A stretch of DNA of 64,000 bases, taken from IMG/VR virus record IMGVR_UViG_2529292751_000001, positions 61,735 through 125,734 of that record; one strand, 5' to 3'. Below the pieces are notes generated by a model, which made no database searches, was not told the DNA's origin, and worked only from the letters and a program-made list of their open reading frames with translations. The stretch is from a virus. Taxonomy: Duplodnaviria > Heunggongvirae > Uroviricota > Caudoviricetes. Shown here one piece after another: positions 807 through 57,802 of this stretch. Within the stretch, counting starts at the first letter, position 1. Every line of letters begins with the position of its first letter. The position numbers and the translations under genes were made by a program.

Positions 807-834
807 AAAGGGGAATCTTAATTGATTTCCCTTT
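807..834 (+). other. stem-loop (AAAGGGGAATC/GATTTCCCTTT) directly abutting motif copy 1; no U-tract
   Basis: inverted repeat read from the sequence. Confidence 0.5.
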
Positions 835-852
835 AAACAAAAGTATTGCAGA
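833..852 (+). promoter_or_regulatory. conserved 20-nt element TTAAACAAAAGTATTGCAGA, copy 1
   Basis: exact consensus; followed by GAAGGAG SD. Confidence 0.9.
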
Positions 853-3203: not shown

Positions 3204-3223
3204 TTAAACAAAAGTATTGCAGA
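3204..3223 (+). promoter_or_regulatory. conserved 20-nt element, copy 2 (its TTGCAG doubles as a -35)
   Basis: exact consensus immediately after the helicase stop. Confidence 0.9.
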
Positions 3224-3245
3224 GATGCTGTTAGTGTGATAGTAT
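3217..3245 (+). promoter_or_regulatory. sigma-A-type promoter (-35 TTGCAG, 17-nt spacer with TTAGTGTGAT, extended -10 TGaTAGTAT)
   Basis: hexamers and spacing read from the sequence; shares TTAGTGTGAT with the promoters at 17038 and 33327. Confidence 0.5.
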
Positions 3246-3283
3246 TACATTAACAGCAAAGCAATACAAAAGGAGAGAATGAT

Positions 3284-3688
3284 ATGAACGTTAAGGTCTT
3301 AGCGGATGTATTAGTGCAAGCTGAAGAGATTGGCTTAATCGGCAGGAAAGAATTAAGGATTAATGTAAAATACAAAATATTAAACAAAAGTATTAATAGA
3401 CTGTTAGGGAAAAGACATAAGGTCATGGAAACATTATTAAGCTTTGATTCGATAAGCGATTTATCATTCTACAAAGAATGCATAAAGACTCTCAATTCTA
3501 TGGATAGGCAGGAGGCTGTCATTTATATGATACAAAAGGATATTGATAGTAAATTATCTAAGCATAAAGACTCCATTCTTGCGGATGAGATGCTTAAGGA
3601 ATTACACAAGGTTGCAAGTGATTTTTCCAATAATGGGAAGAAAATGAGCATTGACATTGAAATCAAAATGCAAAAGGAGACGTTCTAA
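3284..3688 (+). CDS. hypothetical protein (134 aa)
   Basis: ORF track; AAGGAGAG SD. Confidence 0.5.
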   Translation: MNVKVLADVLVQAEEIGLIGRKELRINVKYKILNKSINRLLGKRHKVMETLLSFDSISDLSFYKECIKTLNSMDRQEAVIYMIQKDIDSKLSKHKDSILADEMLKELHKVASDFSNNGKKMSIDIEIKMQKETF

Positions 3689-7178: not shown

Positions 7179-7198
7179 TTAAACAAAATTATTGCATA
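7179..7198 (+). promoter_or_regulatory. conserved element, variant copy 3 (TTAAACAAAATTATTGCATA)
   Basis: 17/20 to consensus; between the YqeY stop and the ligase SD. Confidence 0.75.
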
Positions 7199-7216: not shown

Positions 7217-8113
7217 TTGGAACAGAAAAAATATCAAGATATTACTAGACTAGGACACAAAACAACTGTAGGCGTATTAAAAGAGGGAGATTACATCGTA
7301 ATTCAAGAGAAGCTAGATGGTGCTAATGCATCATTCCGCAGGGATGGAGATGTAATTCGCGCCTTCTCAAGAAACAAAGAGTTAGACGAGCATAATAACT
7401 TAGGCGGATTCTGGCAATGGACGCAAACTCTAGACGTTACAAAACTTCGTGAAGAGGGTATTTATTTTGGTGAATGGCTAAATCCTCATAAAGTAAAATA
7501 CCCAGAATACGCTAAAACATTCTGGTTGTATGATATTTTCGATACAGAAACTCAACGATACATTAACTTTAAATTAGTAAAGAAAGTTTCTAAACAATTG
7601 GGATTGAACTTAATCCCAGTATTCTACGAAGGCGAATATCAATCGTTTGAACATTTACAATCATTTGTCGGTAAAACTGCTTTAGGAGGAGTTCTTGGAG
7701 ATTCAGAGACTGGTGAAGGCATTGTTGTTAAGAACGTTGACTATGTAGACAGATTTGGGAATCAAAAGTTTGTTAAACTTGTTGCAGATGTATTCCGAGA
7801 AATTCAGTCTCAAAAAGCTCCTAAAGACCCTAAAAAGGCTCTTACTCAAGAACAATCATTTGTTAACCAAGTTGTTACGGAGGCTAGAATCGAGAAGTTC
7901 TTATACAAGTTTGTAGATGAGGGAATCATTGATGAGGAATTTGGAATCGAGGATATGGGAGTAATTCTTAAGAACATGAATACTCGTATCAAGGAAGATA
8001 TCTTGAAAGAAGAGTCTGAGATGCTTCCAGAAGGTTATGATGAAAAACAGTTATCTAAATCAATTGCTAGAGTAGTTGCTCAAAGTGTTAAGAAATTGAT
8101 TATTAACCGTTAA
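7217..8113 (+). CDS. ATP-dependent nucleotidyltransferase ligase, probably Rnl2-type RNA ligase (TTG start)
   Basis: motif I EKLDGANAS (KxDGxN), motif V GEGIVVK, FGEWL and DIFD motifs. Confidence 0.55.
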   Translation: MEQKKYQDITRLGHKTTVGVLKEGDYIVIQEKLDGANASFRRDGDVIRAFSRNKELDEHNNLGGFWQWTQTLDVTKLREEGIYFGEWLNPHKVKYPEYAKTFWLYDIFDTETQRYINFKLVKKVSKQLGLNLIPVFYEGEYQSFEHLQSFVGKTALGGVLGDSETGEGIVVKNVDYVDRFGNQKFVKLVADVFREIQSQKAPKDPKKALTQEQSFVNQVVTEARIEKFLYKFVDEGIIDEEFGIEDMGVILKNMNTRIKEDILKEESEMLPEGYDEKQLSKSIARVVAQSVKKLIINR

Positions 8114-8129
8114 ACAAAAGATTTGCAGA
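8110..8129 (+). promoter_or_regulatory. conserved element, variant copy 4 (TTAAACAAAAGATTTGCAGA)
   Basis: 18/20; immediately after the ligase stop. Confidence 0.8.
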
Positions 8130-8189
8130 GTTGCTGATATTGTGGTAAGATTACAGTATCAGCAATTTTATTGTATAGGTGATGAAATT

Positions 8190-9263: not shown

Positions 9264-9472
9264 TGAAGAAGATTTATGTTATCAAGTATACACATATTAT
9301 GACAGGACTAGGAAAAGATGAGGAGAGAACTCATTACTTTGACGAGTCTCAAAAGGCTCAATTTCTATCAAAATATACGATATTAAAAGAGGCTTGGTAT
9401 TGCTTTAATCTAGAAGCTTACAAGGCAGACAGTGTTTCAAAATTAGATGTAGATTCATTATTAGACTTTTAA
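9260..9472 (+). CDS. hypothetical protein (70 aa)
   Basis: ORF track; ATGA overlap with the primase. Confidence 0.4.
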   Translation: MMKKIYVIKYTHIMTGLGKDEERTHYFDESQKAQFLSKYTILKEAWYCFNLEAYKADSVSKLDVDSLLDF

Positions 9473-9488
9473 ACAAAAGTATTGCAGA
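9469..9488 (+). promoter_or_regulatory. conserved element, copy 5
   Basis: exact consensus; followed by AAGAAGGAATAGA-ATG. Confidence 0.9.
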
Positions 9489-10134: not shown

Positions 10135-11405
10135 GATTAACTTATGAACAATTAAATATGATTAAAGAGAAAATGGGAGTAGACATGCTATGGTCATTCT
10201 CAAAAATGAGTACTTATTTGCAATGCTCTTGGCTATATAAGCTTAAGTATATTGACAAGATTAGATTAAAAGGGGATAACTGCTACACGCATTTCGGTAC
10301 GGTATCGCATGATGTTATCCAAGGGTTATATGATGAAGTTCATACATATGAACAGATGATTGACAAGTTTAACGATGAGGTTATCAAATGGCAAATCAAC
10401 GATGACCCTGCACTAAAATTCAATTCTGATAAAGAGCGCGATGGATATATAGAAAACCTTCGCCATTACTTTACCCACACAGAACAGATTCCTTATAAGG
10501 TAGTCAATGAAAAAGCTGTCTTAGCTGTATTTGAGGGTGCTAAGAAATACGTATTCCAAGGTTATATCGATTCCCAGTACACAGATGAAGATGGAATCTT
10601 TTATATTCTCGACTACAAAACTTCTAGTAAAAGCGGATTCACTGGCAAAGACTTGTTGAAAAAGGCTCAGCAGTTAATGATTTATGCAGTCGGTATCAAT
10701 CAGTTCCATAAGATTCCTATTGATAAGATTCGACTTCGTTACGATATGATGAAGTATTGTAATGTATCATTTATGCAGAAGAATGGCAAGATGAAGACGA
10801 CTAAAGCAGAGCGTAGCTTATGGGTTGCTCACATATCTAATCAGTTACGCAAAGACTTTGAGGATGTCGAGAAGAGTATCGAGAAGCATCAAAAGGAAAT
10901 TACAAAGATTGAGAAGAAAATCAAGCAGAAGAAGACTACTCCAGAAATGGCAGAGGAGTATCTGGCTATGATTAAGATTGAGGAAGAGTCTATTAATGAA
11001 CTAGAGAAGTTCGTATTTAATCCTCTTGAGATTAATGAAATGATGGACACAGCTATGAATAACAATACTCTAGAAAACCTACCTCAGTTTATTCAAGACA
11101 AGTATACGGTTGAGAACTGTTATATTGATGTTGAGCTGACAGAGGAGATTGTAGAGGAATTTAAGGCTGAATTAGTTTCTGTATTAGACAAAATTATTGC
11201 AAAGACAGAAGAAGGCAATGCTGATGAAGCATTTGACCGTAGCAGAATCGACAACTCTAATTCCTTCTATTGCAATACTTTATGCGATATGAAGAGTAAA
11301 TGTAAGTTCTATGAGGAATATAAAGAGAATAGCTCTATGTTTATAGAGAAGAAGGTTGACCAACCTAGCGATGAAGAGATAATGGCTATGTTTGGATTGA
11401 GTTAA
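10131..11405 (+). CDS. PD-(D/E)XK nuclease, Cas4/RecB-like, with Fe-S cysteines
   Basis: ILDYKTS motif; one N-terminal Cys plus C-terminal CNTLCDMKSKC cluster; GTG start overlapping the tdk stop. Confidence 0.55.
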   Translation: MRLTYEQLNMIKEKMGVDMLWSFSKMSTYLQCSWLYKLKYIDKIRLKGDNCYTHFGTVSHDVIQGLYDEVHTYEQMIDKFNDEVIKWQINDDPALKFNSDKERDGYIENLRHYFTHTEQIPYKVVNEKAVLAVFEGAKKYVFQGYIDSQYTDEDGIFYILDYKTSSKSGFTGKDLLKKAQQLMIYAVGINQFHKIPIDKIRLRYDMMKYCNVSFMQKNGKMKTTKAERSLWVAHISNQLRKDFEDVEKSIEKHQKEITKIEKKIKQKKTTPEMAEEYLAMIKIEEESINELEKFVFNPLEINEMMDTAMNNNTLENLPQFIQDKYTVENCYIDVELTEEIVEEFKAELVSVLDKIIAKTEEGNADEAFDRSRIDNSNSFYCNTLCDMKSKCKFYEEYKENSSMFIEKKVDQPSDEEIMAMFGLS

Positions 11406-11437
11406 GACGCGGAGAAATCTGCGTTTTTTCTTTTTTT
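11405..11437 (+). terminator. Rho-independent terminator (GACGC...GCGT stem plus T9)
   Basis: hairpin followed by TTTTTTCTTTTTTT. Confidence 0.6.
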
Positions 11438-11444
11438 AAATTTA

Positions 11445-11464
11445 TTAAACAAAAGTATTGCAGA
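11445..11464 (+). promoter_or_regulatory. conserved element, copy 6
   Basis: exact consensus. Confidence 0.9.
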
Positions 11465-11516
11465 TAATTTAAGGCTATGCTAATATTAACTTATCGAACA
11501 GAGAGGGGAAATAAAA

Positions 11517-15078: not shown

Positions 15079-15446
15079 TGACTAAGACAACTATCAAAAC
15101 AATCGAGAGCAACGTAACATTTATCCAAAAAGGTGACAAGGTTAAGAAGAATGGAGATATGTTCGTAATCTCATCAATGGGCAAACAGAATCCAAGTAGC
15201 GCTTTTGAAGGAAGAAATATTGTGAGAAACGAGCCAATTAACAGTGCATTATTTGGAAAAGAATCAACGCCAGCGTATGTAACACCAGTGTATGCAAGTC
15301 AAGCAATTGAAGTATATGCATTAGTAAGTATCACTACTGGAGAAAGATATTATCCTAACCCTTGTTCTTTAGAAGAGCTTGTCCATAAGATTTCAAAAGA
15401 TGGCTTTAAAAAAGTAAATGAAGTAGAGATTATTGAAAAATCATAA
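15078..15446 (+). CDS. hypothetical protein (122 aa)
   Basis: ORF track; ATGA overlap with the polymerase. Confidence 0.45.
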   Translation: MTKTTIKTIESNVTFIQKGDKVKKNGDMFVISSMGKQNPSSAFEGRNIVRNEPINSALFGKESTPAYVTPVYASQAIEVYALVSITTGERYYPNPCSLEELVHKISKDGFKKVNEVEIIEKS

Positions 15447-15463
15447 AACAAAAGTATTGCAGG
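15444..15463 (+). promoter_or_regulatory. conserved element, copy 8 (ATAAAACAAAAGTATTGCAG)
   Basis: core 16/16. Confidence 0.85.
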
Positions 15464-17136: not shown

Positions 17137-17346
17137 ATGATAGATGTTGGTAGTAGGTTAAAATTGCTTCGTGAAAAGAAAGGTTTGCGACTGCAAGATG
17201 TCGCAGAGAAGTTAAACAGTAATACTTCTACATATGGAGGATACGAAACAAACTATAGGAGACCTAGCTATGAAGTTCTTTGTCAATTAGCAGATATATT
17301 CGATACAACTACAGATTTCATTCTAGGAAGAACGGATAGTCAATAA
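17137..17346 (+). CDS. Xre-family HTH protein (69 aa)
   Basis: LKLLREKKGLRLQDVAEKLNSNTSTYGGYE helix-turn-helix. Confidence 0.55.
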   Translation: MIDVGSRLKLLREKKGLRLQDVAEKLNSNTSTYGGYETNYRRPSYEVLCQLADIFDTTTDFILGRTDSQ

Positions 17347-19590: not shown

Positions 19591-19609
19591 CTTAAGCAAA
19601 ATTATTACT

Positions 19610-19630
19610 TGACGTAAATGAGAACAGGTG
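19610..19630 (+). promoter_or_regulatory. degenerate copy of the conserved element (CTTAAGCAAAATTATTAC) abutting a -35
   Basis: ~14/17 match; same placement as the degenerate copies at 22219 and 27156. Confidence 0.4.
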
Positions 19631-19657
19631 ATAATATTAAGAAGTCGTAAAGATAAA
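19629..19657 (+). promoter_or_regulatory. sigma-A promoter (TTGACG - 17 - TGaTAATAT)
   Basis: hexamers and spacing. Confidence 0.6.
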
Positions 19658-19693
19658 GATTTGCAACACATACACAATGGAGGAATATACATA

Positions 19694-19944: not shown

Positions 19945-19964
19945 TTAAACAAAAGTATTGCATA
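19945..19964 (+). promoter_or_regulatory. conserved element, copy 9 (TTAAACAAAAGTATTGCATA)
   Basis: 19/20; followed by GGAGGGAATTT-ATG. Confidence 0.85.
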
Positions 19965-19975
19965 GGAGGGAATTT

Positions 19976-22222
19976 ATGACAACAATTAAAGGTATTGCCA
20001 CATTTAAGAGAGCTATATTCTCAAAAGGCGACTTCGTTATCGGAGCATTTGAGCCAGTGTCAATTGAAGAAGGCAAAGTAGAAGTTAACGAGTCGTTTGG
20101 CACTTTCTCGATGAAAGGTGAGATGCCTGCCATGCAGAAAGAAGCTCAATATCACTTTATAGCCGAAGAAGGTCAGAGACATCCTCAGTATGGGATTTCT
20201 TACGACTGTTGCTTTATTAGACAGGATATTAACCTTGAAAGTGGAGATAGCAAAGATATTAGAAGCTTTCTAGAGGTAATCTTAACGAAGAGACAAGTAG
20301 ATTCGCTGTATGAGGTATTTGAGAATCCGTTAGAGGTAATTAAGGAGAATAATCCAGAGAAGCTCACACAAGCAAGCGGAATAGGTTTAAAGACAGCCAA
20401 TCGCATTCTAAAGCATTACGACTCTCAAAAGGATTATACAGTTGCATATGTGGAACTTGGTAAATTTGGAATCACGCCAAACACTATTCGCAAAATCGTT
20501 GGCTTCTATGGCAGTCCAGAATTAGCAGTTCAGAAGATTAATAACAATCCATATGAGCTTATGAAGATTGATGGCTACGGATTTAAGACATGCGATGAGA
20601 TATTCTTTAAAATGGGCGGAGACCCTAATGATAAGATTCGCATTAAGTCATTCCTACTATTTGCATTACAAGAGGAAGCAGGAAGAGGGCATACATGGTC
20701 AGCTCCTTCAGACCTAATTCATACAGCGTTAGAGTTTATCCCAACTGCAGACCAATCATTAATAGGTCGAATCTTAATTGATAATGAAGATGATGAATTC
20801 TATCTAACACCAGATAAAAAACGTATCTCATTAAAGCCATTCCAAATGTTAGAAGAGCTTGTAGCAGGGCAGTTATATCGCGTTCTTACAGCTAATAACA
20901 CATTCGAATACGATGGATGGGAAGATGAAGTTGCTAAAGCCGAAGAAGAGCAAGGTTGGAGATTCACAGACCAACAGAAGGAAGCGATGCAGATGATGCT
21001 AGAGAATAACGTTTCTATCTTGCAAGGTTATGGTGGTACTGGTAAAACGACAAGCTTAAAAGCTGTTGCAGATATCTTAGAAATGGTTGGTTACATTTAT
21101 GCACAATGCGCTTTAAGTGGTAAGGCATCAAATAACTTGGCTCTGGTAACAGGTCGAGAAAGTAGTACTATTCATAGATTACTAGGCTTTGATGTTGGTA
21201 GCGGTGGATTCCACTACAATCACAAAAATCCGTTACCATATGACATTATTATTGTCGATGAGGTGTCTATGGTGGATGCTCGACTATTTGGTCATTTATT
21301 ACTAGCAATTCGCTCTGGTGCAAAACTAATCATGCTAGGGGATAGCCAACAGTTAGAGTCTATTGGTATTCCAGTTATGATGCCGATGCTAGACAGTCAT
21401 ATGATACCTACAATGACATTGACTCAGATTCATAGACAAGCACAAAAATCTGCTGTCGTAACGGATTCTATTGCGATTCGACAAGGTAAGCAGGTTGTGA
21501 AAGAGTCTATAGGGCGCGTAGTCCATGGAGAACTACAGGATTTAGAATATGAGCTAGTAGAATCAGACGATGATATCTTCCTTAATGTTGTGAGAGAGTT
21601 TCATAAACATATTCAAGTAGAAGATATTAAGGACGTTCAAATCCTTTCTCAGACTCGTAATAAGGGCAAAAACTCATGCCTAGCAATCAATAAAGCATGT
21701 CAAAAGATTTATAATCCAGAGTCGGAAGATAAGGATGAAATTCAAGTTGGTAAGGAAGACACTGGCTACGTATTACGACAGGGCGACAAGGTTATCAATA
21801 TCAGAAATAACTATCAAGCTGTTGACGAGCATGATATGAGTTGTCCTGTATTCAATGGTAATATTGGTATTCTAGAAGGTTTCTATACGGATGACGATGG
21901 AGATAACTATATGCTTATCGACTTTGAGGGTATTGGACGATTAAAGATTTACGAAGACAAGTATAGCACAATCGAATTAGCATATTGTATTACCGTACAT
22001 AAGAGCCAAGGTTCTGCTTCTAAGATTATTATCGTAGCATTTCCATATCATTTCTTATTAAATAGTCGCCAATTAATTTATACAGCAATTACTCGTACAC
22101 GAAAACACTGTGTAGTTATTGCCACTAAAAAGACTCTTGTGAAAGCAATTCAGAAAGATGATGTGTCAAATAAGCGCACATACCTTGCCGAATACCTTCA
22201 TAAGCTTGACAATTCTAATTAA
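19976..22222 (+). CDS. RecD-like ATP-dependent DNA helicase
   Basis: HhH GIGLKTANRILKHY; Walker A GYGGTGKTTS; Walker B IIIVDEVSM; C-terminal SH3-like region; ORF track start 19958 trimmed. Confidence 0.75.
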   Translation: MTTIKGIATFKRAIFSKGDFVIGAFEPVSIEEGKVEVNESFGTFSMKGEMPAMQKEAQYHFIAEEGQRHPQYGISYDCCFIRQDINLESGDSKDIRSFLEVILTKRQVDSLYEVFENPLEVIKENNPEKLTQASGIGLKTANRILKHYDSQKDYTVAYVELGKFGITPNTIRKIVGFYGSPELAVQKINNNPYELMKIDGYGFKTCDEIFFKMGGDPNDKIRIKSFLLFALQEEAGRGHTWSAPSDLIHTALEFIPTADQSLIGRILIDNEDDEFYLTPDKKRISLKPFQMLEELVAGQLYRVLTANNTFEYDGWEDEVAKAEEEQGWRFTDQQKEAMQMMLENNVSILQGYGGTGKTTSLKAVADILEMVGYIYAQCALSGKASNNLALVTGRESSTIHRLLGFDVGSGGFHYNHKNPLPYDIIIVDEVSMVDARLFGHLLLAIRSGAKLIMLGDSQQLESIGIPVMMPMLDSHMIPTMTLTQIHRQAQKSAVVTDSIAIRQGKQVVKESIGRVVHGELQDLEYELVESDDDIFLNVVREFHKHIQVEDIKDVQILSQTRNKGKNSCLAINKACQKIYNPESEDKDEIQVGKEDTGYVLRQGDKVINIRNNYQAVDEHDMSCPVFNGNIGILEGFYTDDDGDNYMLIDFEGIGRLKIYEDKYSTIELAYCITVHKSQGSASKIIIVAFPYHFLLNSRQLIYTAITRTRKHCVVIATKKTLVKAIQKDDVSNKRTYLAEYLHKLDNSN

Positions 22223-22238
22223 ACAAAAATATTGCACA
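22219..22238 (+). promoter_or_regulatory. degenerate copy of the conserved element (TTAAACAAAAATATTGCACA), copy 10, just upstream of a -35
   Basis: 18/20. Confidence 0.7.
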
Positions 22239-22244
22239 AAAATG

Positions 22245-22274
22245 TTTACAAGATGTATGTATGGATGGTATAAT
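22245..22274 (+). promoter_or_regulatory. sigma-A promoter (TTTACA - 18 - TATAAT)
   Basis: hexamers and spacing. Confidence 0.6.
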
Positions 22275-22316
22275 TGATTTTGTAGTGATGCTTAGGCGTC
22301 TATTTCAATTATACCA

Positions 22317-22336
22317 TTAAACAAAAGTATTGCAGA
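22317..22336 (+). promoter_or_regulatory. conserved element, copy 11, in the predicted 5' leader
   Basis: exact consensus; followed by GAGGTGTAAA-ATG. Confidence 0.9.
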
Positions 22337-24839: not shown

Positions 24840-24864
24840 AAGAGGGGTTACTTTTAACCCTCTT
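24840..24864 (+). other. stem-loop (AGAGGGGTTA/TAACCCTCT) abutting motif copy 12
   Basis: inverted repeat; no U-tract. Confidence 0.5.
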
Positions 24865-24882
24865 AAACAAAAGTATTGCAGA
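24863..24882 (+). promoter_or_regulatory. conserved element, copy 12 (between nrdE and nrdF)
   Basis: exact consensus. Confidence 0.9.
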
Positions 24883-26176: not shown

Positions 26177-26449
26177 ATGAAATTAATCAAATTTGAACAA
26201 GACAACTGTACACCATGCAAAATGTTAGCAAAGGCTCTTAAAGAAGATTTTGGCAAAGTAATCGAAGTAGATGAAGTACATAACCTTACTACAGGTAATG
26301 ATGAAACATTTATGTTAGCAGGAGAGTTTGGCATTGAGAAAACACCTGTATTGCTATTACTCGATGATAATGGCAAAGAAATTGACCGTCATAAAGGTGT
26401 AGGCATTACTGGAGTATCACGCGTATTATCTAAGCGAGGATTAATCTAA
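26177..26449 (+). CDS. NrdH/thioredoxin-like redoxin (CTPC active site)
   Basis: N-terminal CxxC, size 90 aa, RNR operon context. Confidence 0.55.
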   Translation: MKLIKFEQDNCTPCKMLAKALKEDFGKVIEVDEVHNLTTGNDETFMLAGEFGIEKTPVLLLLDDNGKEIDRHKGVGITGVSRVLSKRGLI

Positions 26450-26697
26450 TGAGAGAGCATATTAATATCAAATTCCAAACAGGAACAGTCCAAGAGCATG
26501 GAGTAAATGGCGCACAAATTGAAGATGTAATTGATGTATTAGTAGAACGATTAGAAGGATTCCAGAAGGGTGGATATCCTTGCAGAGAGAATGCATTAGC
26601 TATCACTAAGCTAGAAGAGGCTAGAATGTGGCTAAATGAGCGCACACGTAAGCGTCAAGAGCAAGGTGTAGAAGGTAAGTATACTAATCACAAGTAA
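26449..26697 (+). CDS. hypothetical protein (82 aa)
   Basis: ORF track; ATGA overlap. Confidence 0.4.
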   Translation: MREHINIKFQTGTVQEHGVNGAQIEDVIDVLVERLEGFQKGGYPCRENALAITKLEEARMWLNERTRKRQEQGVEGKYTNHK

Positions 26698-26757: not shown

Positions 26758-27159
26758 ATGAAAAAAGGATTAGAACTATTTGAAGAGGTATTTGGAGAAG
26801 ACGTTACAATCGAAGAGGTTCGAGGCGAAGAGATTGAAGGTGCTGAAATATCATATGAGAATGAAGACCATAATGGATGGTGGATTTATCAAGATGTAAT
26901 CGTAGACTATAAAGGTAAGAAATATTCATTCAGATATAGAGAGCATGCATCAGATAACTGCTGTGACAACGATTGCTATATTGATACATTTGTAGAAGTC
27001 GAGAAATCTTTTAAGCTAGAATTGAGCCAAGATGAATACGATTTAATTCGCGAGATGTGTGAAGGAGCATATTATTCAGCAAAAGACGATGGCAATGCAG
27101 AGAAGATGGGTAAGGTAAATAAGCTAGAGAATAGACTAATTGAGCTATATTTAAATTAA
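26758..27159 (+). CDS. hypothetical acidic protein (133 aa)
   Basis: ORF track. Confidence 0.45.
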   Translation: MKKGLELFEEVFGEDVTIEEVRGEEIEGAEISYENEDHNGWWIYQDVIVDYKGKKYSFRYREHASDNCCDNDCYIDTFVEVEKSFKLELSQDEYDLIREMCEGAYYSAKDDGNAEKMGKVNKLENRLIELYLN

Positions 27160-27175
27160 AACAAAAGATTTGCGA
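27156..27175 (+). promoter_or_regulatory. degenerate copy of the conserved element (TTAAAACAAAAGATTTGCGA), copy 13, just upstream of a -35
   Basis: variant with an extra A and GATTTGCG. Confidence 0.65.
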
Positions 27176-27181
27176 AAAGTG

Positions 27182-27210
27182 TTGACCTATCTCACTAACA
27201 TGTGTATAAT
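27182..27210 (+). promoter_or_regulatory. sigma-A promoter (TTGACC - 17 - TATAAT)
   Basis: hexamers match the consensus at optimal spacing. Confidence 0.7.
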
Positions 27211-27225
27211 CAAGTTATAAGTTAA

Positions 27226-27245
27226 TTAAACAAAAGTATTGCAAA
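27226..27245 (+). promoter_or_regulatory. conserved element, copy 14, ~10 nt downstream of the predicted TSS
   Basis: TTAAACAAAAGTATTGCAAA. Confidence 0.85.
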
Positions 27246-27271: not shown

Positions 27272-28345
27272 ATGTCTAAAACAGTAGATACATTAAAGGA
27301 TTCGGAATCATTAGAAATGATGATGGCAAAGGAGTTAGCACAAGAGAAGGTCAAAGTGTTCTCTCATAATGATTTAGATGGAGTAGGTTGCGGTATTGTA
27401 GCTTTGATGGCACATCCAACAGCAGATGTTGAATATTGTGCCTACCACGATATTAATGACAAGGTTAAAGCGTTTATTATGACTAAGGGTTATGAGATGT
27501 ATGACCGAATTTATATCACAGATATCTCAGTAAACGAAGAGGTTGCAGAGTTAATTGAAGAGCATTGCCCTACCAAAGTTAGACTTCTAGACCATCATGG
27601 TACTGCTACATGGTTAGATGACAAGTATTTCTGGGCTTTAGTTGAAGAGAAGCGAGAGGATGGCAGTATTAATAGCGGTACAAACTTACTGTTTGAAGAG
27701 CTTCAATTACAAGGATACTTCAAGGGTGAACGATATCAAGATGCATTAACTATCTTCGTAGAAATGGTTAGGCGCTATGATTCATGGGAATGGAAGAACA
27801 TCTATGATGACCAGAACCCAATGCAGTTAAACAATCTATTCTTCTTAGTTGGTATTAATAAGTTTGTAAAACGATACGTTGACCGATTCAATACACTTGA
27901 ATTATTCACTGTTAGAGAAGGTTACTGGATGGAGATGTTTGACGAGACAGATGTTGCTGTATTAACAATCGATAACAAGAAGAAGGAAGCCTACATTAAG
28001 CGCAAAGAGAAGCAAATGATTAAGGCTAATCTGATTGGATACGATGTTGGCGTAGTATTTGCAGAGCAATATATTAGTGAGTTAGGCAACGAATTATCTG
28101 AGAGAAACCAAGACTTAGAGTTTATTGTTATTATAGATATGGGAGCTAAGAAGGTGTCTTATCGCACAATTCATGCTCATATTAATCTAGGTAAAGACGT
28201 AGCAGGATTCTTTGGTGGCGGAGGTCATCCTAAAGCATCTGGTAGCATGTTTAACGAACGAGTATTAACATGGGCATACAAAGTTATATTCGGTTTAGGC
28301 TTTATCGGAAAATTCAAAAATATTGTTGACAGATTTAAAAAGTAG
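27272..28345 (+). CDS. DHH/DHHA1-family phosphoesterase (NrnA-like)
   Basis: motifs HNDLDG, DHHGT, DHHA1 GGGHPKASG; ORF track start 27239 lies inside the motif, so trimmed to the ATG at 27272. Confidence 0.6.
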   Translation: MSKTVDTLKDSESLEMMMAKELAQEKVKVFSHNDLDGVGCGIVALMAHPTADVEYCAYHDINDKVKAFIMTKGYEMYDRIYITDISVNEEVAELIEEHCPTKVRLLDHHGTATWLDDKYFWALVEEKREDGSINSGTNLLFEELQLQGYFKGERYQDALTIFVEMVRRYDSWEWKNIYDDQNPMQLNNLFFLVGINKFVKRYVDRFNTLELFTVREGYWMEMFDETDVAVLTIDNKKKEAYIKRKEKQMIKANLIGYDVGVVFAEQYISELGNELSERNQDLEFIVIIDMGAKKVSYRTIHAHINLGKDVAGFFGGGGHPKASGSMFNERVLTWAYKVIFGLGFIGKFKNIVDRFKK

Positions 28346-28355
28346 TAGTAAAATA

Positions 28356-28394
28356 GAAGGTGAGGTTAATAGGTTAGCCTTTTAGCTTCACCTT
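28356..28394 (+). other. stem-loop abutting motif copy 15
   Basis: GAAGGTGAG...CTCACCTT. Confidence 0.4.
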
Positions 28395-28412
28395 AAGCAA
28401 AAGATTTGCAAG
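28393..28412 (+). promoter_or_regulatory. conserved element, variant copy 15 (TTAAGCAAAAGATTTGCAAG)
   Basis: 16/20. Confidence 0.7.
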
Positions 28413-29577: not shown

Positions 29578-29943
29578 ATGTATACGAATATTGACAAGGT
29601 GATTGCAGAACGCGTTATGGGATGGAATCACAATGGTGAGTATCATACTTACTATGTTGCAGGTAGTAATTTAGAATTTTCGCCATCAACTGATATGAAT
29701 CATACTCTATTGGTAATGGAGAAGTTAAAGGAGCTTGGATTCAGCACATTACTTCGAGATTGCTCAAATGAAGATTGTGGGATAGTGAAAAGTAAAGAAG
29801 CTACTCGTGATGATTATTACTGTAGTATTAGCACTGGTAGTATATATAGTGAGAAATTTAGATTCAAGAGCATTGCTAAAACGCCTCAGATGGCTGTTTG
29901 CTTATCTGCATTAAAGGCAGTGGGAGTGATTGATAATGACTGA
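29578..29943 (+). CDS. hypothetical protein (121 aa)
   Basis: ORF track; AGGAGGCATTTATT-ATG. Confidence 0.45.
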   Translation: MYTNIDKVIAERVMGWNHNGEYHTYYVAGSNLEFSPSTDMNHTLLVMEKLKELGFSTLLRDCSNEDCGIVKSKEATRDDYYCSISTGSIYSEKFRFKSIAKTPQMAVCLSALKAVGVIDND

Positions 29944-30704: not shown

Positions 30705-30724
30705 TTAAACAAAAGTATTGCAAA
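30705..30724 (+). promoter_or_regulatory. conserved element, copy 16
   Basis: TTAAACAAAAGTATTGCAAA. Confidence 0.85.
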
Positions 30725-30750
30725 AAATAAACGAAAGAGGTATAATAACT

Positions 30751-31123: not shown

Positions 31124-31402
31124 ATGAAACGCACTATGGATGATTTAACTAACTGTTTTAATGAAGCTAGTAAAGCAAATTCAAATTATGTATGTGTAGT
31201 AGTAAGCATGGCAGGATTCCCAAAAGAGGAACTTATCATTAATCAAAGAGAGAACTTTGAAGGCAAGCTAAAGTACTATCAAAACGTGTATGACAAAGGC
31301 TTAGACCATAAGCATGCCACAGGAGTTCGAATCATTGGATTCGCACATGGCAACACATTGAATCAGATTCACAAAGAGCTAGTTCTCAAAAACTTACTAT
31401 AA
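31124..31402 (+). CDS. hypothetical protein (92 aa)
   Basis: ORF track. Confidence 0.45.
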   Translation: MKRTMDDLTNCFNEASKANSNYVCVVVSMAGFPKEELIINQRENFEGKLKYYQNVYDKGLDHKHATGVRIIGFAHGNTLNQIHKELVLKNLL

Positions 31403-31419
31403 AACAAAAGTATTGCAGA
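31399..31419 (+). promoter_or_regulatory. conserved element, copy 17
   Basis: TATAAAACAAAAGTATTGCAGA. Confidence 0.85.
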
Positions 31420-34998: not shown

Positions 34999-35166
34999 AT
35001 GAGTAGCAAAAAGAGAGTACTCAATCCAGTAGAAATTAAAAAAGATGTAGATTACATTCCACTAGGAAGAGCATTCGATTTCTGGAACAACGAGGGAGAC
35101 GATATTTATGACGAAGTCTATGGGGAAGACAGTGAAGCAGGGCGAGGTATGGATAGCAAACGTTAA
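34999..35166 (+). CDS. putative antitoxin (55 aa)
   Basis: AAGGAGGATACGAGT-ATG; overlaps the toxin start; ORF track extends it upstream to 34906. Confidence 0.45.
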   Translation: MSSKKRVLNPVEIKKDVDYIPLGRAFDFWNNEGDDIYDEVYGEDSEAGRGMDSKR

Positions 35167-35452
35167 GTTCGTCCAAGATAATCAAACTAAAGTCAGACCA
35201 GTCTTGGCAATAAGCTTAGAAATCGATGGGGATGACGATGTTGTCGTCCTCCCTGTCACTTCTCAGAATCCAAGAAATGACTACGATGTAGAAGTTTCGG
35301 ATTACAAAGGGACTGGATTGTTAAAACAACCATCATACATAAGAACATCAAAGCCATTAACAATCGAAAAGAGAGAGCTTAAAAGAAAAATAGGCGAAAT
35401 CAAAGATGTTGACCTAGCGAACGCATTGGAAAAGTTTCGTTCATTATTTTAA
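35108..35452 (+). CDS. MazF/PemK-family endoribonuclease toxin
   Basis: GEVWIANV...VRPVLAIS...VVLPVTSQ typical of PemK/MazF; start at 35108 or 35120. Confidence 0.65.
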   Translation: MTKSMGKTVKQGEVWIANVKFVQDNQTKVRPVLAISLEIDGDDDVVVLPVTSQNPRNDYDVEVSDYKGTGLLKQPSYIRTSKPLTIEKRELKRKIGEIKDVDLANALEKFRSLF

Positions 35453-36125: not shown

Positions 36126-36479
36126 ATGTCCGATATTGCTCATGTCACCGCTAAAAGAGTTAAAATGTTAAGATTAAAGAAAGGATTGACTCAAAAGAGT
36201 CTTGGGGAATTGGTTGGAGTATCTGAAGCATTTATATCCATGATAGAATCTAGGTCATCTACTAACAAGAGACCATCTGGGAAAACTATATCTCTTATAG
36301 CAGAAGCCTTAAACGTATCAACTGATTACTTATTAGGGCTATCTAATACAGAAGATTTATTACCTTACTCTGATACAAGGAGAGAATTTGAAGTAATTAT
36401 TGAAAAGGTCGAGCAGTTGGATGAGGATAAGCGTGTAATGGTTATAAAGATGATTCAATCTATGGTCAAAACATTATAG
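36126..36479 (+). CDS. Xre-family HTH transcriptional regulator (117 aa)
   Basis: LRLKKGLTQKSLGELVGVSEAFISMIE helix-turn-helix. Confidence 0.6.
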   Translation: MSDIAHVTAKRVKMLRLKKGLTQKSLGELVGVSEAFISMIESRSSTNKRPSGKTISLIAEALNVSTDYLLGLSNTEDLLPYSDTRREFEVIIEKVEQLDEDKRVMVIKMIQSMVKTL

Positions 36480-36850: not shown

Positions 36851-36955
36851 TATTCTGAATAATATTGAAAAATAAGGCTATTTCACTTTCACTTCATTCC
36901 CCTACTATATAATAGGAAGAAACATGACATATATATATGGATGAAGGAGGATACT

Positions 36956-38050
36956 ATGAACGTCCCAGTCAAAGGAAACGAAAAGATTACGCAGTTATTA
37001 AACGAATGGTACATTGAAATTCGTGCCAGACGAATTGGTCAAGCTCATAGATTGAAAGAAGAGATTGATAAAAAGATTGATAGTATAGAAAAAGACCAAA
37101 CTCTACTATTATACTACTCTCTCTTAGATTTTCGATTTCAGTACATTGTAGATAATCTAGGAGTCTCTGCCAACAGTTTTGATAAGGTTGAAGAGTTTGA
37201 GATTCCAACAAACAACTTTTTGACTTATTACTACCACTTCTTTAAGGCTATTCATGCTTCTGGTATTGGTAACTACATGATTGCAAAAGAACACTTTGAC
37301 AAAGCTGAATCTCTTCTTGAATTAGTTCCAGATGAGATTGAAAAAGCTGAGTTCTACTACAAATTAGGCGCTTTCCACTATGACATCTACGAATCACTCC
37401 AATCAATTAAGTATGTTAACAAAGCAAAAGAAATCTTTGAACAAAATGAAAACTATGAGCGAAATGTTGGATTCTGTGAGAACCTTCTTGGAACTGCTTG
37501 TACAAAGCTAAGAGAATGGGCTTTATCAGAGGAACATCTTATTAAAGCTATGGATATTTTCAGCAAGATTGATGAGGAAAAGTATACTTTAATGGTTAGA
37601 CATAACCTAGGGTATATGTATTCTAGTCAGAACTTATCTCCACTGGCAATTAGATATTTATCAGAGGTAACAAGTCACAATCCTAGACATCACAAAGCTC
37701 TGTTCTTACAAGCTAGAGAGCATTACAAATTAGATGAGATGGATATCGCAAAAGATTTGGCTGATAGAGGATATAGTATCTGTCTTGAGCTAGGGAATAT
37801 GGAGTATAAACACCTTTTTGCAATTCTGAAATGCCTTATATCTAATGTGTCTGGCGATGAATTGGAGAAGGTTGCAATTGAAGGAATATCTTACTTTGAA
37901 AGCGAATCACTATATGAGTATATAGAAGAGAGCCAAGAGTATATGGCTGTTAAGTTCTATGAGGAAGGCAACCATACTAAATCTAGTGAATACTTCTATC
38001 TAGCTTCAAAAACGAGACAAAAAATCAAGGAAAGGGAGTCTTTAAAATGA
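36956..38050 (+). CDS. rap: Rap-family TPR response-regulator aspartate phosphatase / quorum-sensing receptor
   Basis: N-terminus KITQLLNEWYIEIRARRIGQAHRLKEEIDKKIDSIEKDQTLLLYYSLLDFRF closely resembles Bacillus Rap proteins; TPR-like repeats throughout; ATGA overlap with the phr gene. Confidence 0.75.
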   Translation: MNVPVKGNEKITQLLNEWYIEIRARRIGQAHRLKEEIDKKIDSIEKDQTLLLYYSLLDFRFQYIVDNLGVSANSFDKVEEFEIPTNNFLTYYYHFFKAIHASGIGNYMIAKEHFDKAESLLELVPDEIEKAEFYYKLGAFHYDIYESLQSIKYVNKAKEIFEQNENYERNVGFCENLLGTACTKLREWALSEEHLIKAMDIFSKIDEEKYTLMVRHNLGYMYSSQNLSPLAIRYLSEVTSHNPRHHKALFLQAREHYKLDEMDIAKDLADRGYSICLELGNMEYKHLFAILKCLISNVSGDELEKVAIEGISYFESESLYEYIEESQEYMAVKFYEEGNHTKSSEYFYLASKTRQKIKERESLK

Positions 38051-40194: not shown

Positions 40195-40214
40195 TCTGCA
40201 ATACTTTTGTTTAA
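40195..40214 (-). promoter_or_regulatory. conserved element, copy 18 (minus strand), upstream of the amidase
   Basis: exact consensus on the minus strand. Confidence 0.9.
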
Positions 40215-43632: not shown

Positions 43633-43652
43633 TCTGCAAATCTTTTGTTTAA
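43633..43652 (-). promoter_or_regulatory. conserved element, variant copy 19 (TTAAACAAAAGATTTGCAGA, minus strand)
   Basis: 18/20; followed by GAAGGGATGAG-ATG of the 230-aa gene. Confidence 0.8.
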
Positions 43653-43688
43653 TAACCTCCATACGACACCGTTCAAATGTCTATTACA

Positions 43689-43717
43689 ATGATATCATAT
43701 TTTGGAGGTCATTGCAA
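43689..43717 (-). promoter_or_regulatory. sigma-A-like promoter on the minus strand (-35 TTGCAA supplied by motif copy 20, 17-nt spacer, TGaTATCAT)
   Basis: hexamers and spacing. Confidence 0.45.
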
Positions 43718-43731
43718 TACTTTTGTTTTAA
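43712..43731 (-). promoter_or_regulatory. conserved element, copy 20 (TTAAAACAAAAGTATTGCAAT, minus strand)
   Basis: core 16/16. Confidence 0.8.
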
Positions 43732-47893: not shown

Positions 47894-47913
47894 TCTGCAA
47901 TACTTTTGTTTTA
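47894..47913 (-). promoter_or_regulatory. conserved element, copy 21 (minus strand)
   Basis: TAAAACAAAAGTATTGCAGA; GAGGGTG SD follows. Confidence 0.85.
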
Positions 47914-47937
47914 GGGGAGTAATTAAACTCCCCTAAG
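47913..47937 (-). other. perfect 9-bp stem-loop (TAGGGGAGT/ACTCCCCTA) abutting motif copy 21
   Basis: read directly from the sequence. Confidence 0.55.
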
Positions 47938-47943
47938 CATCAA

Positions 47944-50900
47944 TTATAGTTTATTCTTGCTCTTTTGTAAAGCAATTTGTGGAAGAGATAGAATCGCATC
48001 CTTAATTCCATCAGCAGTCTTAATGTTAGGGAATTCAATATTATCGATAGTGATTTGAGTTGGAGAACTCGCAACACTTCTAGATACTGCCTGTGCATTA
48101 AACGTATTTGGCAATCGAGACAGCAACGCATCCGCGAACACCTTTCCTAGCTCACTGCTGATTTCAGTGAATGTCTTTTTCAATTCCTTGTTAAAGTCAT
48201 TAGAAATAGGCTTCATAATGTCTTCTACTGGCAATTTAGACAACACATCTTCGTTACCTTTGATGTATTTAGAATACGCATCAACTAACTCTTTTACGTA
48301 ATCTGATTGGATTTGCGGGAAGTCTCCCAAGATAGATTCGAATGCATCGCCAAGTTCTTTAATTGCATTTTCAAACTCTTTAACAGTTTCGTAATCTCCA
48401 TCTTTAGCATTAGAAAGAATCTTATCTAATTGGCTCAAGTAATCCTCTCTTGCCTTTTCCTCCATTTTCTGAAGTTCTAGTTTGGCTTTTTCAAGGTCTT
48501 CTTTCGCCTTATCAAGTTCCTTCTGGTCAGCTTCATAAACCCAATCCCATTGACCAAATTCGTTCTGCTTTAATGTCTGAACTTTCTTCTCTTGGTTAAG
48601 ATTATTAATCTTATTCTGAAGCTCAACAATATCAAGCTGTTTGTTTAGGTAGTCCATTTCGAACTTGCTTAGTTTCTCTTGCTTATCAAGAAGAGCTAGT
48701 TTATCCTCGTTAATAGAAGTTCCAAGGTCAGCCATTCTCTTATACATTTTCTCTAATGCAATTTCTCGTTCTAATCCTTCTATCCACAGCTCTTGATGTT
48801 GTTTCCAAGCTTTCTGAGTTTTCCCTCCGAACAGCTCTTTTTCCATCTTGTCGGTGATATTATTGAATGAGTTATCCATAATATTCTTGTTAATCTGAAG
48901 CAGTTCTTTATTACTATCGTTAAGTTGCTTATTGTATTGCTCAACTTGTGCATTGATTAGATTCCACTCGAAACTTCCTTTCTCATACAGACCAAGCTGT
49001 TGATTTAAGTAGTTTAGAGACTTCTTGATTTCAGCATTCTTATTTTGCTCCACATTAAGCTGTTCACCTAGAATAGTACCCTTTGTTGTTGTATTATTCT
49101 TGTCTAGTAAGTTGACGATACTTGTGAGGTAATCTAGACTAGCAGATGCCTTATCATACTCTTTAACAGCTTTGCTAAGTAGGCTAAATTCAAATTCGAA
49201 TCGCTTCTTAATAGAATCTTTAATGCTATTTTGAGCGCCTACATTATCCTTTTCATAAGTAGAAATTTGCTGTTTAATTTTTTCAACTTGGTCATCTGTT
49301 AAGCTTGTATCCTGTAACTGACGATTCAATTCTTCAATTGCCTCATTGTTACCTTGGATGTTCGCTCTCAGATACTTCTCTTGTAGCTTCATGCTGTCGA
49401 TAATATATTTATTAGTTAGAGAGTCTTTTTCATCTGGGTTTAGAGCTGAAGCGAGATTGCGTTCGTATTCTTTTAGAAGTGCCGACTGCTCTTTCTGAAC
49501 TTCTTTAATATACTTCGTAAGTTGTCCTGCTACAAGAGTACCGTATCCTGCATCAATCTTATTGATATCACCCATATCTCCCAACACTGAAGACGATACT
49601 CTTGACATCGATAAGTCTTGACCGTTCTTGTAAGCATATTCTAATCCTAAAAGCTGATTATACATTTGTTTATTGATATCTAATATGGAATTAGCAACCC
49701 ACTCTGTTCTCTCAACGTTTTTCTTAGCATATCCTGCTAACGCTTCTTGAACTTCTTTTTCGAGATTAATACGCTCTATAGCCATTTGCTGAAGTCTATT
49801 ATCTCTAGATAGGTCAAGCTCAGTAATATTGGAACTGTATAAGTCTCCAACTCCAGTTCTGCTTAAAAGACCATCTTGCAAGTTCTTTACAACATTATCA
49901 ATCTTAGTGTTATTTTCATCGATTGCAGAATTGAATTTGTTCATATCTTCGGTGATACGACTAATTTCAATATCGTTCATCGCTTGACGATACTTTATAA
50001 CAGCATCTGCCTGAGCTAGAATTGCAGAACTAACTTTCTGTAGCTGAGATTGAATTTGAGAGCCATTCTCCTTGAATTGTACTGACATAGTAGATAGGCG
50101 ATTAAACTCATTAATCAATTCAGACATGTTCTGCTTAGATTCATTTAAAGCTCTTGCGTTAAGATGTAAGGCAAGTTCCTTATCCTGTGAGCCAACGAAA
50201 CCAAGCTTTCTAGAAGTTATAGCATCTGAATTCGTTACTTTCGTAAGAATTGCATCTACTCTCTTCATTGTAGGCTCAAGGTTTTTTAGCTCTTCTGTAA
50301 TTTTAGCTTTCTCGATAGTGTCATCAAGACCTTTGACGTTAGAATTTAAGTTGGCAATGGTATCCTGCAATCCACCTATTTCGGTATAAAGGGATTTCCA
50401 TCTATTTAGCAATTCCTCTGCTTTTTGAGCAGACTCTCCTTTAAGGTCTTTAGCATGATACAGATTGTTAATATTATTAGTATCTGTATCTACCCAAAAT
50501 CCATAATCACTAAGCTTATTAAGGACTTCATCCAACTCTTTATCTTTGTAGTAAGATAAAATTTCATTATGAGACACTTGTTTTTTCAAAAGAGCTTGCT
50601 GTTGTTTGTAGAGCGGAATAAGCTTCGACTGGTCGTCCTTCGCTTCATTGATGGCGATAGTAAGGTTTTTCAGCTCTTTTTCAATGCTTGCACCCCTATA
50701 CATTTCTTGCCCCCAATAACGCCAAACAGACTCACTCACCGTAGCATTTTCATTCGCAGAGTTATAATCTCTGTCCGAATTATACTTAGAAACTCCCGAT
50801 ACGCTTCTACCAACACCTTTCACTGGGACTCCATTAGCACTTATAGAAGAGCTTTGACTAGAAGAGACGTTGCTCGCTACACTTGAAGACTTTCCTTGCT

Positions 50901-55476: not shown

Positions 55477-55489
55477 TACTTTTGTTTAA
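55470..55489 (-). promoter_or_regulatory. conserved element, copy 22 (TTAAACAAAAGTATTGCTAA, minus strand) between the recombinase stop and the TMP start
   Basis: 18/20. Confidence 0.8.
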
Positions 55490-55490: not shown

Positions 55491-55511
55491 GGAGGGTATT
55501 ACTCCTCCCTG
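55491..55511 (-). other. stem-loop (AGGGAGG...CCTCCCT) abutting motif copy 22
   Basis: read directly from the sequence. Confidence 0.5.
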
Positions 55512-57724: not shown

Positions 57725-57744
57725 TTTGCAAATCTTTTGCTTAA
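57725..57744 (-). promoter_or_regulatory. conserved element, variant copy 23 (TTAAGCAAAAGATTTGCAAA, minus strand)
   Basis: 16/20; predicted TSS of the adjacent promoter falls at its 5' edge. Confidence 0.7.
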
Positions 57745-57748
57745 TTAA

Positions 57749-57777
57749 ATAATATCAAAAAAGATGGCATGCGTCAA
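57749..57777 (-). promoter_or_regulatory. sigma-A promoter on the minus strand (TTGACG - 17 - TATTAT)
   Basis: hexamers and spacing. Confidence 0.6.
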
Positions 57778-57802
57778 CACATACCATCAAACTTTTCGAT
57801 AT

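Follow-up and report, generated by a model that had tools for sequence, protein, structure and literature searches.

What does an 18-bp element do when its copies recur at gene boundaries along a phage genome, and why do pairs of copies stand around several of its sigma-A-type promoters? The question was raised by a 64,000-nt stretch of Caudoviricetes DNA (positions 61,735 to 125,734 of IMG/VR record IMGVR_UViG_2529292751_000001; hereafter the window), for which a preliminary description had claimed, at four loci, the order element copy, sigma-A promoter, element copy and Shine-Dalgarno (SD) sequence. Direct reading of the four loci bore out both this order and the coordinates. We propose that the element is probably the operator set of a phage MrpR-type master repressor, the functional counterpart of SPBRE in phage SPbeta.

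The element, TTAAACAAAAGTATTGCA, has 26 matches in the window at three mismatches or fewer, where shuffled sequence leads one to expect 0.27. A weight matrix derived from the 26 raises the number to about 30 copies (0.7 in shuffles), adding the weak copies at 19592, 27157, 33602 and 57822, and the same repeat family was recovered by a repeat finder. The conserved core is 18 bp long and non-palindromic, with the asymmetric consensus T[T/A]AA[A/G]CAAAAG[TA/AT]TTGCA, while the purine-rich stretch 3' of the core is the SD. All 30 weight-matrix copies are on the coding strand, plus up to 33.6 kb and minus from 40.2 kb, a switch that tracks the convergent gene layout of the window. About 24 of the 26-30 copies lie outside long open reading frames (ORFs), intergenic and co-oriented with the genes, and six are within coding sequence. 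In at least six copies (8110, 9469, 15444, 22219, 27157 and 31400) the TAA of the element is the stop codon of the preceding gene, so that the element occupies the entire intercistronic spacer and stop codon, element and SD form one compact unit.

The loci at which two copies bracket a promoter are listed in Table 1. Besides the four already described, a fifth was found, and a possible sixth whose weak upstream copy (28310-28327) ranks 86th of 128k positions by the matrix. The upstream copy had been said to lie immediately 5' of the −35, which is so at 22219 (8 nt) and 27157 (7 nt) but not at 57822, where it is 27 nt away; a terminator-like hairpin (57788-57763, minus strand) also has the −35 of that locus, TTGACG, in its loop. 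Similarly, a degenerate upstream copy paired with a consensus downstream copy is seen at three of the five loci and not at the other two. The TTGCAA of the minus-strand copy at 43712 is indeed placed as a −35, 17 nt from TATCAT (with TG), and the copies at 3204 and 19592 (previously given as 3217 and 19629) do provide or abut a −35. The upstream copy at 22219-22236 is unchanged in relatives whose flanking bases vary, and more generally both bracket copies are unchanged in relatives of about 90-97% identity while neighbouring bases vary. The bracket is real, promoter-associated and conserved, although it accounts for only five to six loci against about 30 copies in all, and a single copy against an SD is commoner. 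In its behaviour the element resembles an operator for a DNA-binding protein, tied to promoters of sigma-A type.

Promoter-like sites as such are not enriched in the window: a consensus scan gave 75 against 79, 76 against 75.5 and 61 against 67 in shuffles. However, the four co-oriented sites scoring 11/12 (+22245, +27182, +28326 and −47971) are all followed by a copy starting 16-43 nt past the −10, and the 10/12 site at −57777 has a copy 5 nt past its −10. As an intergenic control, a crude gene model was used in which 20 of 85 junctions hold a copy and eight hold a promoter of at least 10/12. Seven of the eight promoter-bearing junctions also hold a copy (Fisher P=1e-4), and among gaps of at least 60 nt such a promoter occurs in 7/14 with a copy and 0/17 without (P=0.0013). 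The association between element and promoter, which had been put forward as a check, thus holds in the window after the intergenic control, and the claim that the arrangement is not due to chance stands with it.

A second signal, independent of the junctions, lies in the element itself. A −10-like hexamer is found exactly 17 nt past the element's own TTGCAR in 7 of 30 copies (P=9e-6), any one spacing having a background of about 0.8, and six divergent relatives show the same spacing in 19 of 63 copies (P=4e-14). Five of the seven cases (3204, 8110, 11445, 30705 and 43730) are, as read from their sequences, convincing promoters with the element as −35; at 3204, 8110 and 11445 a start codon follows 54-62 nt downstream, as expected of a real promoter. 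The TATGAT that stands 17 nt past the TTGCAG of the copy at 833 was taken as chance because it overlaps the start codon.

The exact spacing could also mean that the element is a positive promoter module, in which the A-rich part would be an UP element or activator site and TTGCAR the −35, copies lacking a −10 being relics or half-sites that recruit RNA polymerase. If TTGCAA is the −35, then ACAAAAGTA occupies −46 to −38, where it fits eight of the nine positions of the proximal UP-subsite consensus, AAAAAARNR, and in relatives the 3' end of the element drifts among −35-like hexamers (TTGACA, TTGAAA, TTGATA, TTGCAA) while the upstream core stays fixed. Nevertheless we regard such a module as improbable. 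Most of the perfect copies lie 10-28 nt before a start codon without a −10, and so cannot drive that gene, and others lie in spacers, in leaders or 7-8 nt before a separate, better −35, which is a misfit for a fixed function. Nor would contacts with sigma or with the C-terminal domain of the alpha subunit explain the invariant C/G positions or a phage-wide switch from GTA to CCA. The several registers observed (7-8 nt upstream, −35, spacer and leader) fit a repressor, whereas a single register would be required of an activator or of a fixed promoter element.

Table 1. Copies of the element and associated promoters in the window. Fractions give the match to the promoter consensus; TG marks promoters with that dinucleotide.
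Feature	Positions	Strand	Particulars
Upstream copy, TTAAACAAAAATATTGCA	22219-22236	+	1 mismatch; TAA is the stop of the RecD2-like helicase gene; ends 8 nt before −35
Promoter TTTACA-18-TATAAT	22245-22274	+	11/12, TG; conserved in relatives L072, L073, L004
Leader copy, consensus	22317-22334	+	0 mismatches; then GAGGTG, ATG 22345 (NrdI-like gene)
Upstream copy, degenerate, TAAAACAAAAGATTTGCG	27157-27174	+	4 mismatches; TAA is the upstream stop; ends 7 nt before −35
Promoter TTGACC-17-TATAAT	27182-27210	+	11/12
Leader copy, consensus	27226-27243	+	0 mismatches; starts 16 nt past −10; then GGAGG, ATG 27272
Bracket	43635-43730	−	Copy 43730-43713; its own TTGCAA (43717-43712) as −35; 17 nt; TATCAT 43694-43689 (TG); copy 43652-43635; TTG start 43618
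Bracket	57727-57822	−	Weak copy 57822-57805; TTGACG-17-TATTAT 57777-57749 (10/12, TG); copy 57744-57727; ATG 57706
Fifth bracket	19592-19665	+	Degenerate copy 19592-19609 overlaps TTGACG 19609-19614; 17 nt; TGaTAATAT (−10 19632-19637); degenerate copy 19648-19665; GGAGG; ATG 19694
Possible sixth bracket	28310-28410	+	Weak copy 28310-28327; TTGACA-17-TAAAAT 28326-28354 (11/12); hairpin 28357-28394 (-23.9 kcal/mol); copy 28393-28410
Promoter with single leader copy	47896-47971	−	TTTACA-17-TATAAT 47971-47943 (11/12); 5' hairpin; copy 47913-47896; ATG 47881; no upstream copy
Copy as −35	3204-3245	+	TTGCAG 3217-3222; 17 nt; TAGTAT (TG); start codon 62 nt past copy
Copy as −35, GAT variant	8110-8151	+	TTGCAG; 17 nt; TAAGAT (TG)
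Copy as −35	11445-11486	+	Follows terminator 11404-11427; TTGCAG; 17 nt; TAATAT (TG)
Copy as −35	30705-30746	+	TTGCAA; 17 nt; TATAAT (10/12)
Single SD-abutting copy	833-850	+	Preceded by a -21 kcal/mol hairpin that takes in its TTAAAC
Single SD-abutting copy	7179-7196	+	Before RNA-ligase-like gene
Single SD-abutting copy	9469-9486	+	Upstream TAA stop within copy
Single SD-abutting copy	15444-15461	+	First three bases, TAA, are the upstream stop
Single SD-abutting copy	19945-19962	+	13 nt before ATG of RecD2-like helicase gene
Single copy, nrdE/nrdF gap	24863-24880	+	Hairpin, copy, GAGGGG, ATG 24899
Single SD-abutting copy	31400-31417	+	TAA is the upstream stop
Consensus copy	40197-40214	−	5' of amidase (lysis) gene
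Single copy	55472-55489	−	Hairpin, copy, SD; before 2501-aa tape-measure/transglycosylase-like gene
Intragenic copies	3380-3397 (weak), 11184, 11701, 14688, 33602	+	
Intragenic copy	46051	−	

A candidate for such a repressor is suggested by the identity of the window, which is a Bacillus cereus-group SPbeta-like prophage. Pfam matches and gene order make it syntenic with SPbeta: genes for a DnaB-like helicase, RNA ligase, a PD-(D/E)XK nuclease, DNA polymerase III alpha, a RecD2-like helicase and NrdI/E/F follow in SPbeta order, and on the opposite strand, again in that order, come an amidase gene, the 2501-aa tape-measure-like gene and a YomM-like recombinase gene. In SPbeta the repeat SPBRE (Lazarevic 1999 as cited in Kohm et al. 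2023) is what the master repressor MrpR, or YopR, binds (PMC10516654). This protein has a tyrosine-recombinase fold, but most of the catalytic residues are missing and it no longer works as a recombinase. It is monomeric in size-exclusion chromatography, gives ten peaks in chromatin affinity purification sequencing (ChAP-seq) with a 15-bp asymmetric motif, binds in electrophoretic mobility shift assays and represses PaimR and PyosX five-fold (PMC10516654).

We located SPBRE at the ten published ChAP-seq loci in the SPbeta genome as (ATAG)ACAAATACAAAWAATATGTATA, in 11 copies, all co-oriented with the genes. The copies lie 5' of the −35 (aimR, yonX copy 1), in the spacer or −10 (yonP, yosX, yorZ, yorE, yorM) or in the leader abutting the SD (yopV, yopM, yonX copy 2). 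The yonX locus, copy / TTGATT-17-TATAAT / copy / AGGAGG / ATG, is built like the brackets of the window. SPBRE and the element are alike in being asymmetric, A/T-rich repeats of 15-18 bp, intergenic and co-oriented, in genomes of SPbeta type, and relatives of the window, like SPbeta, have an MrpR-family gene. A monomeric MrpR on a 15-bp asymmetric motif also matches the non-palindromic form of the element. Control of this type is already known from SPbeta; the present case has a new consensus, a higher copy density, copies at late genes and a double-site design that is conserved.

From these likenesses we infer that an MrpR homologue binds the element, that binding represses, and that bound copies may act as roadblocks. 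At two-copy loci, a repressor on or next to the −35/UP region would hinder binding of RNA polymerase, and a second one on the leader copy, which starts at roughly +1 to +36, would occupy some part of about +1 to +40 and hinder promoter escape or elongation; both copies together would place a double lock on host-sigma-A promoters during lysogeny. Where TTGCAR is itself the −35, a single repressor molecule should suffice. Single copies between a stop codon or hairpin and an SD might serve as roadblocks to read-through along the long operons.

The preliminary description had gone further and suggested looping or cooperative repression between the paired sites, a suggestion we find unsupported. 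Bracketing operators are classical: in lac (O1/O2/O3), lambda (OR/OL) and phi105, the last with asymmetric, directly repeated operators, two sites likewise flank one sigma-70-type promoter, near the −35 and past the start site. Their repressors are oligomeric, however, and looping or cooperativity has been demonstrated, whereas the model protein here, SPbeta MrpR, is monomeric. The starts of paired copies are 56, 69, 78, 78 and 98 nt apart in the window and 64-78 nt apart in relatives and SPbeta, with no common helical phase.

Relatives of the window supply the repressor genes. At the DNA level no near-identical isolate phage or plasmid was found. Phages of Mammaliicoccus and Staphylococcus gave only short matches, in ribonucleotide reductase, and the plasmids a single patch, 80% identical, in one of 137 kb from B. 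wiedmannii. The exact 18-mer retrieves IMG/VR contigs of 127-132 kb with many copies (related contigs span 113-132 kb). One of them, IMGVR_UViG_3300003973_000001 (L068), is 88-93% identical to the window, and a NrdF identical to the window's occurs in B. cereus-group NCBI assemblies. Every relative with the element (L064-L071) encodes an MrpR-family protein (PF22822 MrpR_N_CB plus PF22823 MrpR_C_cat). The homologue of L064 (3300005080) is 24% identical to YopR (E=3e-13), and that of L068 is 99% identical to a B. cereus P0053 protein that scores 77 bits for PF22822 against a 27-bit cut-off in a Pfam scan, with PF22823 from precomputed annotation only. MrpR homologues of this lineage are annotated from B. 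cereus-group genomes, the closest isolate-phage match is 31% identical, and NCBIfam has no MrpR model.

In L064, L065, L069 and L071 the gene for the MrpR homologue has a bracket 0.7-1.1 kb upstream of it, which suggests autoregulation. In L064 this bracket consists of a copy ending in TTGACA, 17 nt, TATACT, a copy and an SD; in L069 and L071 of a copy, 4-5 nt, TTGACT-17-TATAAT, 16-17 nt and a copy; and in L065 of two copies 66 nt apart. Upstream of the MrpR gene of L068, one copy fills the spacer of TTGACA-17-TACAAT (8888) and another lies 4 nt past a −10. The sequence of the element switches phage-wide and at orthologous promoters among GTATTGCA, GTATTGAC, KTATTGAA, CCATTRA, the TTAAATAAAATATAA of Geobacillus virus E3 and the ACAAAWAATATGTAT of SPbeta. 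For example, L069 uses AAACAAAACCATTRA throughout, including at an orthologous extended −10 promoter where other phages have GTATTG. Such switching is the pattern of heteroimmune operator sets and argues for a specific, phage-encoded binder.

Geobacillus virus E3 (KP144388) provides a further parallel, as it encodes the MrpR-family protein GP146 (PF22822 and PF22823) and carries its own repeat, TTAAATAAAATATAA, seen in the one 41-kb stretch that the analysis covered. In sequence this repeat is the closest to the element (TTAAAYAAAA[G]TAT), although it is shorter and lacks the TTGCA end. Its copies stand upstream of −35 boxes, within promoter spacers or against an SD (e.g. 8029, 17518, 23318 and 37600), three placements that the element has as well, and one copy directly precedes the operon holding GP146. 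We know of no published description of it.

Several observations weigh against MrpR-type control. The 64-kb window contains no MrpR-family gene, so the candidate repressor is not encoded there, and it is from the relatives that we infer such a gene in the window's own phage. The SPBRE core ACAAAWAATATGTAT has no copy-associated match in the window at three mismatches or fewer, and the two consensus sequences, ACAAAWAATATGTAT and TTAAACAAAAGTATTGCA, have only an ACAAA...TAT...G skeleton in common; with proteins about 25% identical a divergent specificity is to be expected, so that the element is not SPBRE itself but may well be its analogue. The element is about five-fold denser than SPBRE (about 30 copies in 64 kb, where SPBRE has 11 in 134 kb) and, unlike SPBRE, it reaches the late/structural region and has many promoter-less copies, about nine of them single copies without a recognisable promoter that end 10-41 nt before a start codon. 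It also commonly supplies the −35, where SPBRE usually fills the spacer. A core, A(A/G)CAAAAGTATTG, is common to phages whose MrpR proteins are only 36-57% identical, and the MrpR of L069 is no more divergent than those of the GTATTG-form phages, so that switching of the element does not prove MrpR to be the binder.

Further contrary points come from the exact 18-mer outside the lineage. SPbeta itself (AF020713) has one perfect copy at 11254-11271, which directly follows the stop codon of yokJ and leaves 41 nt to yokK, and this site is absent from the published MrpR ChAP-seq targets. Exact copies, one or two each, also occur in unrelated small Bacillaceae prophages, some beside Xre-type genes. 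In favour of a phage operator, on the other hand, the 18-mer has 53 matches across all phyla among 185,579 species genomes, every one single, which makes a host regulon site unlikely; the 13 in Bacillaceae are all in AT-rich non-coding DNA, several of them at the yokK-type site of SPbeta-like prophages. The likeness of the element to a good promoter half-site may be part of the explanation for such stray copies.

The stray copies bear on whether another phage DNA-binding protein could be the binder, such as an Xre-type helix-turn-helix (HTH) protein (17137-17346 or 36126-36479) or a product of the yopM-R-like operon. In L009, L045, L047, L048 and L055 single exact copies lie 65-110 nt 3' of Xre-type genes, whose products are about 40% identical over the HTH to window ORF 17137-17346, and a common element is found with MrpR homologues of only 36-57% identity. 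Against this, 40% identity over an HTH is generic, and Xre-type dimers normally bind palindromes whereas the element is asymmetric. MrpR is the sole experimentally established binder of an analogous repeat in this phage family, and the bracket stands upstream of the MrpR operon in every relative examined. We consider a binder of another kind quite improbable.

The commonest arrangement of the element is in fact a single copy abutting an SD, often without a nearby promoter. About half of the copies are compact intercistronic cassettes of this promoter-less kind, occurring every ~2 kb through early and late operons in one orientation. The single copies without a recognisable promoter, about nine, are those at 833, 7179, 9469, 15444, 19945, 24863, 31400, 55489 and perhaps 40214. 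SD-abutting copies could point to an mRNA-level signal 5' of the SD, at which some factor of phage or host would act on translation, as operator or enhancer, or on processing or stability. The complete co-orientation with transcription would fit, as would about 15 single copies that end 1-25 nt 5' of an SD, the at least six that fill the intercistronic spacer with TAA as the upstream stop, and stable hairpins that abut the 5' end of the element. However, copies 5' of a −35 or forming one lie outside the transcript of the downstream gene and yet are conserved, and the exact 17-nt spacing to the −10 is a feature of DNA. The co-oriented element of SPbeta is moreover bound as DNA by MrpR (PMC10516654), and a compact genome forces any intergenic site against an SD. 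The whole window has no Rfam 15 match at the gathering threshold and no tRNA, so a known RNA family or tRNA was rejected, and no intrinsic fold of the element was found. An RNA-level signal in place of the operator seems to us unlikely on this balance, a little more so than the promoter module.

A second role of the promoter-less copies alongside MrpR-type repression is a related matter. They might be orientation-specific roadblocks formed by a monomeric, recombinase-derived repressor, or act in cis on translation or processing of the mRNA, which we hold to be a tentative and rather doubtful addition. If true, it would mean distributed silencing of a 127-kb prophage, or RNA control, beyond what is described for SPBRE.

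The remaining candidates fit less well. The copies could be modular recombination junctions or cassette boundaries, their overlap with promoters being incidental: they stand at gene boundaries, the phage family has several proteins of tyrosine-recombinase fold (YomM-like 55499-56530, YopP-like and MrpR), and the same 18-mer occurs in unrelated prophages. This is very improbable, as a register-specific link to −35 and −10 would be unexpected, the inverted-repeat core typical of tyrosine-recombinase sites is missing and SPbeta MrpR no longer functions as a recombinase (PMC10516654). A promoter for a YonO-type phage RNA polymerase was rejected. In SPbeta, transcription of the late operon by YonO begins at one site only, upstream of yonK, with an undefined promoter, and a literature search found no later paper defining it; there is no SPBRE at the yonK site, and a leader would not fit behind copies that abut an SD. 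Motifs of sigma-54, extracytoplasmic function (ECF) sigma factors and other Bacillus regulators were also rejected, as there is no GG at −24 and nothing conserved past TTAAAC at ECF spacing.

Prophages of SPbeta type are large and widespread among Bacillaceae, and their cargo includes genes for toxins, bacteriocins and anti-defence; silencing is known only for SPbeta. If the element is the operator of an MrpR-type repressor, the MrpR/SPBRE logic would extend to an uncultured B. cereus-group lineage with a different operator sequence, and the operator-promoter-operator design would be conserved, including at the repressor's own operon. The natural series of variants, from the forms in the relatives to E3 and SPbeta, would offer a way to study DNA reading by a recombinase-fold protein and the divergence of immunity. 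The promoter-less SD-adjoining copies would be a concrete case of possible roadblock or RNA-level control.

Some copies show features of their own. A sub-variant, AAAAGATTTGCA, with GAT for GTA, is found at 8110, 19648, 27157, 28393, 33602, 43652, 57744 and 57822; it lies at promoter-bearing junctions in 7/8 cases against about 7/20 for the GTA form, and around the MrpR gene of L068, a close relative, it is the form met most often. It may reflect affinity tuning or a second specificity. Stable GC-rich hairpins without a U-tract (803-838 and 28357-28394, plus; 47934-47912 and 55510-55489, minus) lie at or over the 5' TTAAAC of copies, with energies of -12.6 to -24 kcal/mol and z-scores down to -5.8. 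The hairpin by the nrdF copy (24840-24864, plus) is weaker (-10.7 kcal/mol, z -1.7). At 28393 and 47913 the predicted transcript would begin with the hairpin, which may therefore be a 5' stabiliser, and at the other loci the hairpins may be weak terminators. The copies at 3204 and 8110 remain alike past their 3' ends, into an inverted repeat, TGCTGWTA-N17-TAWCAGCA (3226-3258 and 8132-8164, plus; two matches against 0.00 expected), which spans the −10 of these element-supplied promoters. One arm reads GTTA or GATA and the other, in compensation, TAAC or TATC. The repeat could be a leader hairpin or else another operator, with dyad symmetry.

The exact 18-mer between yokJ (antitoxin/immunity) and yokK (orphan SMI1/KNR4 immunity) is also present in the B. 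subtilis-group relatives L012, L014, L022, L039, L046, L062, L084 and L128, and L047 has two exact copies (11832 and 11872). Several of the copies in L009, L045, L047, L048 and L055 follow a gene for an Xre/cI-like repressor. L025, apparently a fragment of a multi-copy SPbeta-like prophage, has two tandem copies (3008/3027) that form a promoter, with TTGCAA, the second copy as the 17-nt spacer, and TATAAT.

Elsewhere in the window, two genes are, judged by their matches, probable anti-defence genes. One matches 26449-26697 (plus) and in near-identical loci carries PF24729 (Acb2/Tad1 hairpin, an anti-CBASS/Thoeris sponge family); the other, of 121 aa and by position and length apparently 29578-29943 (plus), carries PF18066 (Phage_ABA_S). 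Near the convergence point the plus strand has accessory genes such as are typical of Bacillus prophages, for a PemK-type toxin (35108-35452), an Xre/RstR-like HTH protein (36126-36479) and a protein of the Rap family (RapH_N plus TPR; 36941-38050). Within the window no AimR was recognised. The only recombinase-fold ORF, 55499-56530 (minus), was rejected as MrpR: it is a tyrosine recombinase of YomM type, with the catalytic HxxR and Y still in place, and has no match to YopR. It lies within the late/structural block, and directly 3' of it come the element copy and the tape-measure-like gene. At 60457-62086 (minus), a 1547-aa gene with GA-like and Peptidase_S74 chaperone domains contains direct repeats of 109-172 nt that are 63-78% identical, with periods of 357 and 1164 nt; it probably encodes a repeat-containing tail fibre.

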